From: an uncultured Pseudohongiella sp.
GTDB taxonomy: Bacteria; Pseudomonadota; Gammaproteobacteria; Pseudomonadales; Pseudohongiellaceae
DNA: 64,000 bases
Reading direction: 5' to 3'
NCBI GenBank assembly: GCA_964343795.1
Contig: CAYFKD010000003.1
Coordinates: 260,669 to 324,668, forward strand
Positions 32,095 through 38,883 of this stretch are shown here, piece by piece. The first letter of the stretch is position 1. Each line of letters begins with the position of its first letter. The notes under the pieces are model-generated. The model worked only from the letters and a program-made list of their open reading frames with translations, was not told the DNA's origin and searched no databases. A program made the position numbers and the translations under genes.

Positions 32095-32284
32095 AAGGAT
32101 AAGCTGAGTCTTTCTTCTATTAACCGGGTTAGCGGCACAATCACCTATATGCTTCAGTCCGCGGGCATGACCAACTCCCACCAAACCGCTATAATCTCGC
32201 CTCCAAAACCGGTGCCATAATCTATAATGGCGTGGAGGTTTTGGATCAGAGCCCTCGTTTCGCATCGATCCCGTAGCTCAGCTG

Positions 32285-32415
32285 GGTGAGGCTCGCGAAG
32301 TACGCAAAGCAAAGCTTTGCGCGAGCCGAACGACTCGCCATGGATGGCGAGGCTGGGGTAATTTAGGAGTGCTAATGTTGCGCCAGGGATGGCATGTAAG
32401 ATATCTATAGAATCA
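32285..32415 (+). repeat. Structured GGA-hairpin element, copy U1 (candidate CsrA/RsmA-binding RNA module or miniature insertion element)
   Basis: 131 nt, preceded by a decayed copy of tRNA-Arg positions 1-19 (32266-32284). Hairpins are CTCGCCA-TGGA-TGGCGAG (32333-32350) and GCCA-GGGA-TGGC (32381-32392). Confidence 0.8.
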
Positions 32416-32434
32416 CGCGCCCGTAGCTCAGCTG

Positions 32435-32565
32435 GGTGAGCATGAGCGCGATGGAAGCGATAGCTTCCAGCGAAATGCGAACGACCGGCCATGGATGGCC
32501 GGGCTGGTATTTAGAGAAGCACTGAAGTCGCGACAGGGATGTCAGGCAGGAAACTACAGAATCAC
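32435..32565 (+). repeat. Structured GGA-hairpin element, copy U2
   Basis: Exactly 150 bp after U1 and preceded by GCGCCCGTAGCTCAGCTGG (32416-32434, identical to the tRNA 5' end). Hairpins are CCGGCCA-TGGA-TGGCCGG (32484-32501) and GACA-GGGA-TGTC (32531-32542). Confidence 0.8.
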
Positions 32566-32642
32566 GCGCCCGTAGCTCAGCTGGATAGAGTAACTGGCTT
32601 CGAACCAGTTGGTCGGGAGTTCGAATCTCTCCGGGCGTGCCA
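32566..32642 (+). tRNA. tRNA-Arg (anticodon TCG)
   Basis: Hand-folded 77-nt cloverleaf: acceptor GCGCCCG/CGGGCGT, D arm GCTC/GAGT, anticodon stem ACTGG/CCAGT with loop CTTCGAA, T arm GGGAG-TTCGAAT-CTCTC, G73 and an encoded CCA. Confidence 0.9.
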
Positions 32643-32646
32643 AATG

Positions 32647-32675
32647 AAAAAGGGGAGCCAATGGCTCCCCTTTTT
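32647..32675 (+). terminator. Rho-independent terminator after tRNA-Arg
   Basis: AAAAGGGGAGCC-aa-GGCTCCCCTTTTT. Confidence 0.85.
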
Positions 32676-33069
32676 GTTTGGTATGGCTGGAGAATTGATT
32701 CGAACTCCAAAGTTCGACAAATTGCGTGAGCAATTTGGACGGCCGTAGGCCGCCCCGAAGGGGTGAGGAATTTGCGCCAACGCAAATTCTGAATCAATCT
32801 CTCCGGTGGAAGCCGAAGGCTTCCCGAACGGAGGCAGTGAAATGATCAAAGCCCCACTTAGCTAAGTTACTAGTTTATCAGTGTCCCCTGGATACTAGGC
32901 AGCGCAAGTTTGCCGCAATTTTTCCTAGTGATGTCAAATAATCCTCCAAGCTCTGGCCAGAAGTTATTGATGTAGAGGATAGTAGTTTCCAACGAGCGAA
33001 TAGTCATGTTAATCAAGATGACATGGCTAAAGGAAAAGTTTAGGGAAACTAACTTGGGGGAATGGATCT

Positions 33070-34260
33070 CTATAATTCAAGAAATGCCAGCTGCTTTTTA
33101 TTGAGCCTAGTAATATCTATGCCCGTTTTATTTAGTACATAAGATACAACGGAATCCCTGGTGTCTTTCATCATTTGTGACAACTTCTCAACATTTTCAC
33201 ATTCACTGTAAGTCAAAATGTAACTCTGTACAGTAGACTCGATGCGAGATAAGAATCGGGGGTACGTGATCCCTCTTCGTAGCAGATTATCGAAATCTTT
33301 ATAAGCTAACAGCTTTTCTTTGATTTTATTCGCCTGTGGAGTTGTGACCGTGAGACAATACTTCTTATTCTTTTTTCGCCGGCTAATCCCTTGCCCGAGA
33401 AACTCCGCAGTCTGTTCTGGAGTGTAGATTTTGGTCTTACTTCCATCTCCTAATGCGTGAATTTTTAGTTTCACTGACGCCAATAAGTCGGCACATGTAT
33501 CATGAATCAACTTGCAATCCTCTTCTGTTTTTGCGAAGGCTATTATGTCATCAGCATAGCGAATAATTTCGAACCCAGTAGACAGAAGCTCACTATCGAA
33601 ATCCCAAAGCAACAAATTAGCAAGGTATGGGGACAAAGGCATACCTTGCCTTAGGCCAACTCCATTTCGAATACCCATTGCTCGGATCTTCTTTCTATCT
33701 TCGAAAACACTCTGGTTTACCTCCGTATCAATAACGGCATCGAGAAGAGGGAACAATGACGATACCCTTAACTTCATCCGCAACTGCTCCTTGAGTACCT
33801 CGCGTGGAATCTTGTCGAAGAATGAAGAGATGTCAGCCTTGTAAACCCAGGGGTTATCATGTCGTTTCTTCACTGACGCTTTGAGAGCATCTTTTGCAGA
33901 CTTCCCGCGGATGAATCCATAACTGACAGGATTGTCGAAAGAATATTGACCATTACTTAGGAAGCGATACATTGCTCGTTGCACTAATCTATCGCGGATA
34001 AGAGGGATACAGATTAATCGCTCTGTACCTTCAGGTTTTGGAATAAAAACGGGCGTTAATGGACTGAACGTATAGCTGCCGCACCGGAGTAGCTTAGAGA
34101 TTTCTGAAATTTGAAGTTTCTTTGTTGCTTTAAATTCTGAAAGGGACATTCCACTAGAATCGTGAAATCCACGTACTCGAGTATTCGAGGCCCGGAACAT
34201 TTCCGCCCATTCGAATTCTAGAGAATCAATGGTTGAGAATTTCGAGAAAGCTGATGCCAA
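33070..34260 (-). CDS. Stand-alone reverse transcriptase (RT domain only; defence-associated or unclassified type)
   Basis: The 396-aa protein shows RT motifs 1-7: IPKPEGTERLICIP, RDRLVQRA, YGFIRGKS, KADISSFFDKI, LRQGMPLSPYLANLLL, RYADDIIAF, SKTKI, FLGQGI. The start is TTG, and there is no maturase or endonuclease domain. Confidence 0.85.
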   Translation of the reverse strand: MASAFSKFSTIDSLEFEWAEMFRASNTRVRGFHDSSGMSLSEFKATKKLQISEISKLLRCGSYTFSPLTPVFIPKPEGTERLICIPLIRDRLVQRAMYRFLSNGQYSFDNPVSYGFIRGKSAKDALKASVKKRHDNPWVYKADISSFFDKIPREVLKEQLRMKLRVSSLFPLLDAVIDTEVNQSVFEDRKKIRAMGIRNGVGLRQGMPLSPYLANLLLWDFDSELLSTGFEIIRYADDIIAFAKTEEDCKLIHDTCADLLASVKLKIHALGDGSKTKIYTPEQTAEFLGQGISRRKKNKKYCLTVTTPQANKIKEKLLAYKDFDNLLRRGITYPRFLSRIESTVQSYILTYSECENVEKLSQMMKDTRDSVVSYVLNKTGIDITRLNKKQLAFLEL

Positions 34261-34324: not shown

Positions 34325-34471
34325 CACCAAACGCGAAAACAGTACGCACTTCGTTATTCGCGTGACATCAATGGCGAACTTGCTGTAGCGAGAGCTCTCG
34401 CAATTTGGAACGCGCCAATGTTTAGGCTTTCTCGCAACCCGCGAAACTGCACATTGGTATGCGAAATACAC
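34325..34471. repeat. Direct repeat R, copy A (RT-proximal)
   Basis: Identical base-for-base to 34724-34870 (compared by hand). Confidence 0.95.
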
Positions 34472-34723: not shown

Positions 34724-34870
34724 CACCAAACGCGAAAACAGTACGCACTTCGTTATTCGCGTGACATCAATGGCGAACTTGCTGTAGCGAGAGCTCTCGC
34801 AATTTGGAACGCGCCAATGTTTAGGCTTTCTCGCAACCCGCGAAACTGCACATTGGTATGCGAAATACAC
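34724..34870. repeat. Direct repeat R, copy B (RT-distal)
   Basis: 147-bp perfect copy. The offset is 399 bp, which equals 133 codons. Confidence 0.95.
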
Positions 34871-37083: not shown

Positions 37084-38883
37084 CTATCTCGGATCCTGCC
37101 CCCTCTCTCTTCGCTCCCTTACAGGCGCGGCCCGTGATGGCGCGGCCCGTGACGGTGCAGCTCGTGAGGGTGCTTCGGCCCTCCGCGGCGCTGCAGAAGG
37201 AGCCTGTCTCCGTGCCGGGGATGGTTGGCTTCTCCGCTGAGGAGGGGGTGCGCTCCGTGCCTGTCTTGGCTGGGAAATTTCACGTCTTCGTTCGGGAGGG
37301 GCCGAACGCTGGCTGCGCTGCGGTTGCACGCGGGCAGGTCTCGGTGAAGATTGCCTGATCGTGGGTTGAGCGGTAAGAGCTTGCCGGTTTTGAGGCTGGC
37401 TCGTTACGCGGCTACGGTTATTCTGACTGGATGCCGTGTTACGAGTGGTTCGCTGTCGGTTCGAACCCGAACGTTCCATCCTGTTACGAAAAGTGAATAC
37501 CGCCTCGGGCTGGCTCCTGTTACGTGCGCTTGCAGCGGATTCTTCGGTACTGGAGTTACCCTGGTTTACACCTGTGTTGTTTCTCCTGGGTGATGGTCTC
37601 GCGACCCTGTTACCGGACTGCCGGCGATCGCTACTGGATCGGGTCAGGTTGTCCGGCGCGGTTATTGCCGCCGTGTTGGTATCCGGCCCCAGGGAATTCG
37701 ACAATGAGCGGGCGCCATTGGTATTGGGTCGGCCGCTGCCCTGGCGCAGGCTGCGTTCCCGCGCGCTCGGATTCTGTCGGCCGGCGCCGCTCAGTGCGGC
37801 AAGGTTTGAGTTCGACGCATTGCTGCGGTACTGGCCGTAGCTGCCGCGATTGCGCAGTGCTTCATCGAAGCGTTCGCGGGCCGGTGAGCTGTTGGCGTAG
37901 TAGTCGCGATAGCTGGAACTGTTCGGGCGTGATCCACTGTGGCGTTGCGGCCGCCAGTAACTGCCATAACGGTTCTTGTCCCGCACTTCCCGAAAACTGT
38001 TGTTGACGTAGTGACGGTTAAAACTGGCGATGGTTGGGCGCCGGTAGTGGTGGTACCCGAAGTCATAGTAGTGACCATAGTACGGGTGATGGTGGTAGCT
38101 GTGGTGAAAAACGCCCAGGTAATGATCCGACCAGTGTATGGAAAATGCCGTCGTGACGCCCCAGAAAAAACCGGAGTGAAAGTGATAGCCTCGCGGGTAG
38201 GGATAGTAGTACACGGGGCGGGGCCGGGGGTAATAGTGGTAGACCGCAACGGGCTGTTCCACGATGACTTCCTCGACTACGTAATAAGGAACATAGACTA
38301 CTTTTTCATCCACCGGTGTAATTTCGATGGTTTCTTCCGTAACCAACACGTTCTGGTATTCATCCGAAACCAGGTTGCCGGCGGCATGGGCGCGCGCCCG
38401 GAATGACTCCACTGCCGCCAGCACATCGGTTTGCTGTGCAATCACCGCTTCACCCAGCTGCCAGGTGGATTCGATTTCTTCATTCATTAGCAACAGAATT
38501 TCCGGATAGTTGAGCAGGGCAATGATGGATTCATCCCAGGATTCATCGGGGGTGAGATCGGGATCGGTTTCAAGCTGCTCAAGAAACCGCGCCGCCAGGA
38601 CAATTTCCAGGGGATAGGTGGAGGCGGGCAGGATGATGGCCAGCAGGTCATCCGGCTGTAGCGCATAAGGGCCAACCAACTGCTCAAGCTCGGCAGCCGT
38701 GTAGAGGATTACCGCGGGATCAGGATCTATGGGTTGCTGTGCCGTGGTCGAGATGATTTCCAGCGGGTTGCCGTCGGCGTCCACTGGTGTCTGAGCGCCT
38801 ACAGATCCGCAACCCATTAAAAGGAGTAACGGAAAACACAGTAAGCTTCTGAAAAAGCGAAGGATTGCTGATTTCCTGGTCAT
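37084..38883 (-). CDS. DUF3300-like lipoprotein with a long low-complexity C-terminal tail
   Basis: Lipobox LLMGC and the N-terminal motif LLAIILPASTYPLEIVLAARF. The C-terminal half or so is rich in S, R, N, P and Q and ends in APSRA repeats. Confidence 0.7.
   Translation of the reverse strand: MTRKSAILRFFRSLLCFPLLLLMGCGSVGAQTPVDADGNPLEIISTTAQQPIDPDPAVILYTAAELEQLVGPYALQPDDLLAIILPASTYPLEIVLAARFLEQLETDPDLTPDESWDESIIALLNYPEILLLMNEEIESTWQLGEAVIAQQTDVLAAVESFRARAHAAGNLVSDEYQNVLVTEETIEITPVDEKVVYVPYYVVEEVIVEQPVAVYHYYPRPRPVYYYPYPRGYHFHSGFFWGVTTAFSIHWSDHYLGVFHHSYHHHPYYGHYYDFGYHHYRRPTIASFNRHYVNNSFREVRDKNRYGSYWRPQRHSGSRPNSSSYRDYYANSSPARERFDEALRNRGSYGQYRSNASNSNLAALSGAGRQNPSARERSLRQGSGRPNTNGARSLSNSLGPDTNTAAITAPDNLTRSSSDRRQSGNRVARPSPRRNNTGVNQGNSSTEESAASARNRSQPEAVFTFRNRMERSGSNRQRTTRNTASSQNNRSRVTSQPQNRQALTAQPTIRQSSPRPARVQPQRSQRSAPPERRREISQPRQARSAPPPQRRSQPSPARRQAPSAAPRRAEAPSRAAPSRAAPSRAAPVRERRERGQDPR

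Follow-up and report, generated by a model that had tools for sequence, protein, structure and literature searches.

A structured, dispersed non-coding repeat in front of tRNA-Arg in an uncultured Pseudohongiella

Three copies of one element in the window

A 64,000-nt stretch of DNA from an uncultured Pseudohongiella sp. (assembly GCA_964343795.1, contig CAYFKD010000003.1, positions 260,669 to 324,668; here the window) was analyzed for a repeated element that stands twice in front of the tRNA-Arg gene. The element family is denoted E, and its copies in the window U1, U2 and C3. The intact tRNA-Arg(UCG) gene maps at 32566–32642 on the + strand (ARAGORN; Rfam tRNA, 65.2 bits). The 16-mer CCCGTAGCTCAGCTGG, which corresponds to positions 4–19 of this tRNA, was found at exactly three sites in the window (32270, 32420 and 32569); shuffled sequence gave 0.04 matches on average, and three sites were reached in none of 100 shuffles.

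The first displaced copy of tRNA-Arg positions 1–19 (GATCCCGTAGCTCAGCTGG; 32267–32285, + strand) retains 17 of the 19 positions (16 exact, with GAT replacing GCG), and its terminal GG is the attachment point of U1. The second copy (32417–32435, + strand) is identical at 19/19 positions and ends in the GG to which U2 is attached. The third, functional copy is within the tRNA-Arg gene itself, which starts at 32566. An earlier reading of the letters alone (the sequence-only reading) had placed the displaced copies at 32266 and 32416 with an exact 150-bp period. The three sites are real and the first copy is decayed as proposed, but the displaced copies start at 32267 and 32417, and the spacing is 150 and then 149.

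U1 is 131 nt long (32286–32416, + strand), starts with GTGAG directly after CTGG and scored 111.2 bits over 32284–32409 with the covariance model described below. It comprises a tandem-GA stem and P1 domain (32286–32331, + strand), hairpin P2 (hairpin 2; 32334–32351, + strand; CTCGCCA/TGGCGAG with a UGGA loop), GCUGG (32352–32356, + strand), hairpin 4 with a GGGA loop (32382–32393, + strand) and a tail that ends in ..CTATAGAATCAC (32394–32416, + strand). U2 has the same start after CTGG and scored 87.2 bits over 32434–32559, but at 130 nt (32436–32565, + strand) it departs from the 131 nt assigned earlier to both units. Its P2 (CCGGCCA/TGGCCGG) lies at 32485–32502, its hairpin 4 (GACAGGGATGTC) at 32532–32543, and its tail, ending in ..CTACAGAATCAC, runs up to 32565, all on the + strand. 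The two compensated pairs that had been noticed in hairpin 2 between U1 and U2 were seen again, as were the pair changes in what had been called hairpin 3 (GCCA/TGGC in U1, GACA/TGTC in U2 and GGCA/TGCC in the third copy). The folding z-scores were −2.8 for U1 and −3.5 for U2.

A promoter-like site (ATGACC-17-TATAAT, 32167–32195, + strand; 10/12 consensus positions, a consensus match only) precedes the whole array and is the only one found. As judged from its position, it is the likely start of a transcript that would span U1, U2 and the tRNA. No unit was found to have a promoter of its own, and the flanks are not conserved among 76 family members. The sole strong terminator that the scan detected is the intrinsic terminator of the tRNA transcription unit (32647–32675, + strand). 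It lies after the tRNA, in agreement with the claim that none separates the units from the gene. The U2 P2 hairpin and the following GCTGGTATTT were flagged as terminator-like, but no terminator with a real T-run was found after any unit. Co-transcription of U1 and U2 with tRNA-Arg is thus plausible.

The third copy, C3, lies far from the tRNA gene (693–823, − strand; 103.5 bits over 693–825), between an FtsX/MacB-type permease gene with an FtsX domain, which ends at 672, and an amidase gene, which starts at 907, and is antisense to both. Its 5′ end is attached to the GG at 824–825. The functional end of the permease gene (CCAGTGGAAGCTTTGAGGCATGAATAA, 646–672, + strand) encodes PVEALRHE followed by the stop codon, and a displaced copy of these last 8 codons plus stop (CCAGTAGAAGCCCTTAGGCACGAATAA, 824–850, + strand) encodes the same peptide. 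The two copies differ at five nucleotides in four codons, and all differences are synonymous.

A dispersed family with a conserved fold

A search pattern was derived from the three window copies (GAACGAC-N4-CA-N-GGATG-N4-GGCTGG, 21 specified bases), for which we calculate a chance expectation of ∼0.3 matches in 596 Gb. It matched at least 119 loci in bacterial genomes, one genome per species, and at least 120 further loci in metagenomes. All family-wide counts given here rest on the fetched DNA of the matches listed (119 genomic loci plus metagenome loci, 240 loci, labeled by L-numbers). A covariance model built from 76 members detected 213 copies in the 119 listed genomic loci, and a profile search detected 328 copies in all 240 listed loci. 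In the 64-kb window the model recognized exactly three copies, and the next best match reached 6.8 bits; the three copies belonged to the model seed, so that their 111, 103 and 87 bits hold by construction. E is short (∼125–135 nt) and non-coding, and no reading frame is kept, the antisense frame having a stop codon in U2.

Almost all listed hosts are Gammaproteobacteria. Among the matches listed are Pseudohongiella, other Pseudomonadales, Xanthomonadaceae, Steroidobacteraceae, Aliiglaciecola, Paraglaciecola, Alteromonas, Salinibius, Methylolobus, Pseudomonas citronellolis and Candidatus Oxydemutatoraceae. Cultured carriers are Aliiglaciecola litoralis JCM 15896, Paraglaciecola chathamensis S18K6, Alteromonas oceani S35 and P. 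citronellolis LMG 18378. The sole host outside Proteobacteria among the matches listed is a contig binned as Dehalococcoidia (L063, 3102–3235), which may reflect a binning error or a rare transfer.

Copies also form arrays of up to 7–11 units (L096, L008, L079). At L096 (3613–4553), on a Pseudohongiella chromosome, seven tandem units with a 134-nt period are located between two co-directional genes. The TGA within GGGTGA of the first unit is the stop codon of the upstream 517-aa open reading frame (ORF), and the internal units carry GGCAAGCACCC instead of GGGTGAGACCC. In metagenomes, marine ones among them, a compact variant of E is arrayed with a period of 84 nt (L204, 5920–6283; also L159, L173, L193 and L196).

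The fold was derived from the 76-member alignment with RNAalifold. From its 5′ end it consists of GG, a helix of G-C and U-A pairs, tandem G·A/A·G pairs and the 5-bp covarying P1. P1 encloses one or two small hairpins, and GA then connects to P2, whose 7-bp stem bears an (N)GGA loop; GGCUGG and a variable stretch come after it. Hairpin 4 (3–4 bp, AGGGAY or AUGGAY loop) comes next, and the tail terminates E; the fold has no closing stem. The tandem G·A and A·G pairs, between GU/AC and P1, are invariant in 76/76 members, and many of the small hairpins have 3-nt loops of the GNA type. The tail motif of U1 and U2, ..CAGAATC(C/A)C, recurs in copies without a nearby tRNA, and the tail is therefore counted as part of E.

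The earlier claim that covariation reflects selection on structure was borne out, and far more strongly with 76 members than with three copies. The covariation score was 0.507 compared with 0.141 in shuffles, none of 500 shuffles scored as high, and slid-partner controls gave 0.07–0.09. Over 26 pairs, paired cells amounted to 86.5%, compared with 64.1% in shuffles, and both P1 and P2 covary in this larger set. Part of the core is fixed by the search pattern, so that invariance there is partly built in. Evidence free of the pattern comes from the variable P2 positions, which are 100% paired with four pairs altered on both sides, and from hairpin 4 and the GGGUGA head, which are conserved although they lie outside the pattern. 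Within hairpin 4, the residues C, A, G, G and A each reach at least 90% conservation. GAACGAC and the GGA loops are likewise retained in copies that the profile search recovered despite deviations from the exact pattern.

In P1 and P2, G·T pairs outnumber A·C pairs (19 vs. 3), hence one strand is the folded one. At the tRNA-Arg locus this is the tRNA-sense strand. In 39 of the 54 loci with a clear GC skew, the folded strand is the locally C-rich strand (8-kb skew, a rough proxy), and this bias hints at a replication-linked single-strand step. Taken together, the data identify E as a widespread, undescribed non-coding structured repeat of Gammaproteobacteria.

Junctions and gene ends

The two bases before GTGA are G in 102/104 and 95/104 distinct copies, and the third base back is free. 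The insertion target is GG, most often followed by A. This sequence resembles the E loops, and a recombination factor could therefore also be the reader of A-N-GGA. In a sizeable minority of copies, the GG junction lies within the first or last 10–76 nt of a gene, and in about one quarter of copies a left flank of 12 to >100 nt ending in GG is repeated past the E tail, leading into the intact gene. This restoration of a gene end is seen at the tRNA-Arg and FtsX genes of the window and at more than 20 other loci, the targets being the D-loop or T-arm of tRNA genes, 5S rRNA, and the first or last codons of protein genes.

Sense insertions after G18G19 of the D-loop, with the 5′ part of the gene repeated, were found in tRNA-Ser (L007), tRNA-Arg (L152, L209 and L210) and tRNA-Gly (L186 and L194); L209 likewise has two tandem units before tRNA-Arg. 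Other sense insertions lie at about position 10 (L139) and after about position 45 (L142) of the tRNA. Antisense copies follow a GG in or beside the T-arm, and there the 3′ end is repeated (L003, L005, L029, L032, L036, L052, L053 and L081). A 5S rRNA end is used in L006. E is also inserted within GG loops of older E copies in arrays, and in the central loop of REPIN-like palindromes of ∼110 nt (L026, 3890–4140; L044, 4850–5090; L058, 4620–5110). The left flank ..GCGGGCGTGCGAGRCAKGG is common to many copies in Pseudohongiella-type genomes, which makes a second repeat family a preferred target.

Copies within 250 nt of a tRNA gene number 32 of 328, ∼10 times our chance estimate. Twelve of them are sense upstream, 15 antisense downstream, five sense downstream and none antisense upstream, so that the 3′ side of E faces the tRNA gene in 27/32. 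Orientation beside tRNA genes follows insertion geometry, not expression. In protein-gene settings, 24 copies are convergent, 31 co-directional (20 sense and 11 antisense) and five divergent; away from tRNAs, E prefers gene 3′ ends.

The origin of the repeated gene ends was approached through their codon differences. In addition to the four synonymous codons of the FtsX gene, the repeat copies differ at 14 synonymous and no non-synonymous codons in a MurA-type C-terminus (L169, a 76-nt repeat that ends exactly at the stop codon), at seven and one in an amidohydrolase C-terminus (L202), at five and none in a GGACT N-terminus (L218), at six and none in a GST N-terminus with its ribosome-binding site (L070), and at eight and three in a further protein-gene case (L220). 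The six cases total 44 synonymous and four non-synonymous codon differences. An unused duplicate would gather mostly non-synonymous changes, therefore both copies have evolved as working gene ends. The simplest reading of these sequences is that one copy is the resident end and the other came with E from another lineage. The repeats in tRNA genes begin at the mature 5′ or the CCA end because similarity stops where constraint stops.

In the alignment of the family, U1 and U2 share 59% identity. U1 is 70–74% identical to copies in Pseudohongiella and related genomes (0.74 to L010, 0.71 to L007; also L016), and the closest family members listed for U2 are L081 (0.63) and L036 (0.62), both beside tRNA-Ile in Pseudohongiella. 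Each is thus nearer to copies of other genomes than to its neighbor, which excludes a recent local tandem duplication. On sequence comparison, U1, U2 and C3 are three independent copies of E.

We consider it probable that U1, U2 and the copy at 693–825 belong to a non-coding, structure-defined mobile repeat that restores gene ends. The sequence-only reading had offered a related hypothesis, a miniature insertion element that targets CTGG and restores the gene end it interrupts. In modified form it is well supported by the hundreds of dispersed copies, the recurrence of the layout at tRNA, 5S rRNA and protein genes, and the wholeness of the interrupted gene. The target, however, is reduced to GG, terminal inverted repeats and a fixed target-site duplication of a classical miniature element are absent, and the restoring copy seems to have been brought in, not made by duplication at the site. 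Nor does E have the ends of a miniature inverted-repeat transposable element (MITE): one end, GGGTGAG.., is not the inverted counterpart of the other, ..tail, and flank repeats, where present, vary from 12 to >100 nt.

Several observations weigh against a mobile repeat that imports gene ends. About three quarters of the copies have no flank repeat. Long identical repeats that reach into unconstrained flank occur in L026 (41–46 nt), L036 (58 nt), L139 (at least 75 nt) and L142 (>100 nt), and also in L213; local or recent duplication therefore also occurs, and an imported end may not account for every copy. The 19-nt tRNA repeat of the window is itself too short and too conserved to be assigned as imported or duplicated. 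No recombinase, transposase or reverse transcriptase was enriched near copies on ORF clustering of 120 loci, E had no match in viral contigs and plasmids, and no empty site was found for the tRNA-Arg locus. Finally, the A-N-GGA loop is kept where its closing pair is lost (A·C in 33/75 copies), so that some factor reads the sequence itself; this could be CsrA, that is, a function at the RNA level.

E carries no gene of its own. Partner genes were sought by all-against-all clustering of the ORFs in the same 120 loci, which yielded two large clusters. One consisted of spurious read-through ORFs across E arrays, and the ABC ATPase cluster was dropped, its members being generic ABC ATPases. A Y1/HUH transposase, RAYT or TnpA gene was not seen near copies in these loci. 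In the empty-site search, the neighboring 170-aa protein had no relatives in JGI metagenomes, and its database homologues (∼50% identity) have different gene contexts.

CsrA-type loops, rival explanations and known families

Each unit has two GGA hairpin loops, with CA-N-GGA-Y-G in P2 and in hairpin 4. The noted agreement of U2 with ACARGGAUGU was found to hold (ACAGGGATGT), and ACAGGGAUGU of U2 equals the SELEX consensus. Scans of the window and 18 family loci with Rfam returned only tRNA and rRNA at gathering level. The proposed search with the Csr/Rsm models (clan CL00106) found none that reaches its gathering threshold, the best scores being 11.7 bits for RsmW (gathering 52) and 16.2 bits for TwoAYGGAY, which belongs to the same clan. 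Among the weak matches at permissive level, TwoAYGGAY (RF01731) aligned locally to the U2 P2 (16.2 bits vs. gathering 43; 22 nt, model positions 50–71), Clostridiales-1 to the UGAG..CGAA domain (16.9 bits), and IMES-2 was also present.

TwoAYGGAY has two AYGGAY terminal loops and a tandem G·A stem, its function is unassigned, and CsrA binding has been proposed (PMC4333381; bioRxiv 10.1101/2024.12.11.627843). The motif was first described by Weinberg et al. (2010; PMC2864571), and the original alignment includes at least five loci of Psychromonas ingrahamii. As in E, one loop is borne by a long stable stem and the other by a short stem, the tandem G·A pairs are in a further stem, and there are many copies per genome. 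The E P2 loop, mostly AUGGAU, fits AYGGAY, but hairpin 4 is mostly AGGGAU/AGGGAC, with R for Y at position 2. TwoAYGGAY differs in its outer closing P1 of up to 24 bp and in having the second hairpin inside another stem, whereas E has the 5′ GGGUGA..GAACGAC domain and the GGCUGG linker and lacks a closing stem. Gene-end repeats are not reported for TwoAYGGAY, and the 18 family loci gave no match to it at gathering level. E is treated here as a related variant of this architecture, not as a member.

In the known CsrA sponges, a single gene comes with its own GacA/UvrY-dependent promoter and its terminator, and little other structure is conserved. Their sites are few in Rsm RNAs and ∼18–22 in CsrB. 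CsrB/CsrC and RsmX/Y/Z share with E the hairpin-loop GGA in a CA-N-GGA-UG context, and tandem copies are possible; unlike them, E carries two sites alongside an extensive conserved core that lacks GGA, and is dispersed in dozens of copies in either orientation. CsrA fits the loop consensus, and so could a recombination factor. If transcribed from the tRNA promoter, U1 and U2 would probably bind CsrA, to judge from their loops.

That CsrA titration is the reason for the units is, in our view, unlikely. Under this explanation, which the sequence-only reading had also offered, E units would be CsrA/RsmA-titrating RNA modules and a gammaproteobacterial relative of TwoAYGGAY; each unit, released from a tRNA precursor or a 3′ UTR (untranslated region), would bind a CsrA dimer, and dispersal would be secondary. 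It accounts for CA-N-GGA-Y-G in both loops throughout the family, with the hairpin 4 motif lying outside the search pattern, for the SELEX-type sequence of U2, and for the alignment of a CL00106 model to hairpin 2 of an element that shares its tandem-GA stem and its pair of one strong and one weak AYGGAY hairpin. Arrays of 7–11 units would present at least 14 GGA hairpins (L096, L008), and the sense orientation is somewhat commoner between co-directional genes (20 vs. 11). However, neither a promoter nor a terminator belongs to the units themselves, their flanks are unconserved, no Csr/Rsm family reached threshold, with TwoAYGGAY aligning to a single hairpin, and csrA is absent from the 64-kb window. 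Antisense copies, 15 of the 32 linked to tRNA genes, are not expressed from the tRNA. The conserved core (GGGUGA.., GAACGAC, GGCUGG and P1) has no role in a sponge, and gene-end repeats with a GG junction require an insertion process anyway.

Two other explanations concern the way in which the repeats arose. One is de novo insertion of a non-autonomous E, with the insertion itself duplicating the flank. Either E would act as a single-strand DNA transposon of the IS200/IS605 type (PATE), or, during replication, a nascent strand ending in ..GG would switch template to another E copy and then return upstream. The target duplications so made would be long and variable, and those left after selection would be the gene-end repeats. 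The precise 5′ junction after GG next to variable tails, the strand-specific fold with its many 3-nt GNA-type loops, the newer copies inside GG loops of older ones, and the perfect E-abutting repeats that include unconstrained flank (L026, L139, L142 and L213) are as expected, and the C-rich folded strand in 39/54 skewed loci suggests a link to replication. A duplicate made on the spot would nevertheless be free to decay, yet the count is 44 synonymous vs. four non-synonymous differences, and similarity ends at a stop codon or tRNA terminus. Moreover, the 120 clustered loci showed no Y1/HUH transposase gene beside E, target duplication is not known for IS200/IS605 elements, and the strand bias is opposite to that of IS608, which favors the lagging-strand template (the 8-kb skew being a rough proxy). 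We rate this origin as improbable. An origin of the array by purely local events is far less probable still. Unequal crossing-over is the classical proposal for the 178-bp repeats after E. coli tyrT, and here it would have tandemly duplicated the upstream stretch, which then diverged without any mobile element. The head-to-tail layout with a ∼150-nt period and a tRNA fragment ending each unit, the near-identical tandem units elsewhere (L209, L058 and L096) and the mirror-image layout of E. coli tyrT-rtT would suit such events. The 59% identity of U1 and U2, each nearer to copies of other genomes, and the presence of the same element at 693–825 and at hundreds of unrelated sites argue against them.

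For a mobile repeat that restores gene ends, the following mechanism is proposed. The spare gene end would arrive with the element; in a miniature integrative cassette made up of E, its tail and the gene end, E would serve as the module for recombination. Such a cassette would travel from lineage to lineage, and an enzyme acting in trans would join it at GG; it may be likened to tRNA-targeting islands, which bring along the end of the gene they target. At tRNA-Arg, two different E variants entered at G18G19 of the D-loop, and the older variant, U1, was displaced upstream together with its tRNA fragment. Here the units would form a long 5′ leader of the transcript started at the tRNA promoter, and RNase P would remove them. 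As RNA, each unit would present two good predicted CsrA-type sites, which would be a property of the element rather than the reason for its presence.

A wider proposal is offered tentatively, and we hold it to be possible rather than probable. E may represent a new class of gene-less integrative mini-cassettes, in which a folded single-strand module of ∼100 nt and a spare gene end home to GG in those ends of tRNA, 5S rRNA and protein genes that readily form hairpins, swap the gene end and spread between species without a recombinase by hijacking a host or replication activity. The A-N-GGA hairpins would be recognition sites of that activity or CsrA sites, and TwoAYGGAY and RtT would be relatives or relics. 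If this is true, many Gammaproteobacteria hold dozens of copies that enter the ends of essential genes harmlessly by means of a replacement end. Such entry, together with gene-free movement between lineages, would give selfish DNA a new means of landing safely in tRNA and protein genes, and would add a new source of gene-end mosaicism. It would also give a concrete origin for tRNA-linked repeats such as RtT and a genomic context for the orphan TwoAYGGAY. For annotation, E units should not be labeled as sRNA genes or tRNA pseudogenes. The presence of E in cultured strains makes mobility and CsrA binding directly testable.

A comparable layout is that of RtT, the 178-bp repeats of E. coli tyrT (RF00391), which like E are non-coding repeats in a tRNA transcription unit, each holding a terminal segment of the tRNA (in E. 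coli, the last 19 nt). Processing of the tRNA sets RtT free (Bosl and Kersten, 1991, as cited in PMC4986893). Unlike the window units, which precede the tRNA and copy its 5′ end, RtT follows the tRNA and copies the 3′ end, and it has no AYGGAY hairpins. The window gave no RtT match, and L050 gave a weak full-length alignment (21.9 bits vs. gathering 45), the score coming largely from the tRNA-derived end. At this locus (1490–2350), csrA, tRNA-Ser, a terminator, an inverted T-arm fragment, an E copy, the last 19 nt of tRNA-Ser after GAGU, and tRNA-Arg(ACG) follow one another; the GAGU junction is that of E. coli RtT, and this csrA is the only one seen beside a family member among the loci listed. 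In E. coli K-12 (NC_000913.3, 1286000–1288500; L124), a tyrT-tyrV repeat unit begins with GGGGAAGGGTGAGAACCTTCGAC..AAGGTTCGATTCGAG, a GGGUGAG-stem-CGA arrangement like the E head, and the other units have GGAUGAG instead; the likeness may be due to chance or to a distant relationship.

Integrative elements that target gene ends resemble E in their direct repeats of the target gene end with restoration of the gene, in repeat copies that diverge as orthologues, in similarity that stops at the gene terminus, and in a strong preference for tRNA genes. E differs from such islands in that it forms cassettes of 130–350 bp without a gene, in dozens per genome, uses 5′ ends and protein-gene starts as well, and joins at a bare GG beside a folded single-strand module rather than at a duplex core flanked by arm sites, and E is not associated with an integrase. 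REP/REPIN sequences, MITEs and IS200/IS605-derived elements are likewise short, non-coding, structured, dispersed, intergenic or at gene 3′ ends, and found in arrays. Terminal inverted repeats, a short target duplication of fixed length and a REP head of the GTAG type are all missing from E, its fold is asymmetric and multi-domain with conserved junction nucleotides, and it sits inside restored gene ends. Of the traits of IS200/IS605-derived elements, a left end after GG, a strand-specific fold and a strand bias were seen in E, but so were flank repeats, which are not expected of them. Integron attC sites share the single-strand fold, arrays in one orientation and strand bias.

Four further identities were considered and rejected. 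Against attC sites proper, the E junction is GG^GTGA and there are no GTTRRRY core boxes. A hammerhead-like core (CUGGGUGAG..CGAAC) does not fit at the essential positions and has no Rfam match. A group II or spliceosomal-type intron (GUGAG..YAG) was dismissed on account of copies in both orientations relative to genes. A process acting on mature tRNA (template switching of a reverse transcriptase at G18G19, or priming from the CCA end) would account for repeats that begin at mature tRNA ends, but it does not suit L036, L139 and L142, where the repeats run far into the flanks, nor the protein-gene repeats that stop at stop codons; limited conservation explains the boundaries better.

The neighborhood of tRNA-Arg has further features. 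Past the tRNA terminator, 32697–32830 contains an inverted T-arm copy (GATTCGAACTCC, 32697–32708), then small hairpins with GNA-type triloops, then a direct copy of tRNA positions (AATCTCTCCGG, 32796–32806), and has a weak match to Aggregatibacter sRNA 22 (27.1 bits vs. gathering 39.8). This segment may be an old attachment-site scar of the neighboring island or an RtT-like element. A 396-aa reverse transcriptase (33070–34260, − strand; Pfam RVT_1, 1e-28) is encoded ∼430 nt downstream of tRNA-Arg, at the edge of a low-GC stretch (∼32–38 kb, GC 0.45–0.50). It is nearest to group-II-intron-type and UG17-type defence reverse transcriptases, scores below the group II cut-off, and has no relatives at the other E loci. 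Just upstream of it, on its strand, a perfect 147-nt direct repeat occupies 34325–34471 and 34724–34870 (spacing 399), and could be the non-coding partner of the reverse transcriptase or a recent duplication. Farther along, a 15-nt tandem repeat at 37124–37173 lies in the low-complexity C-terminal part of a DUF3300 gene (37084–38883, − strand), where the protein carries AAPSR repeats.

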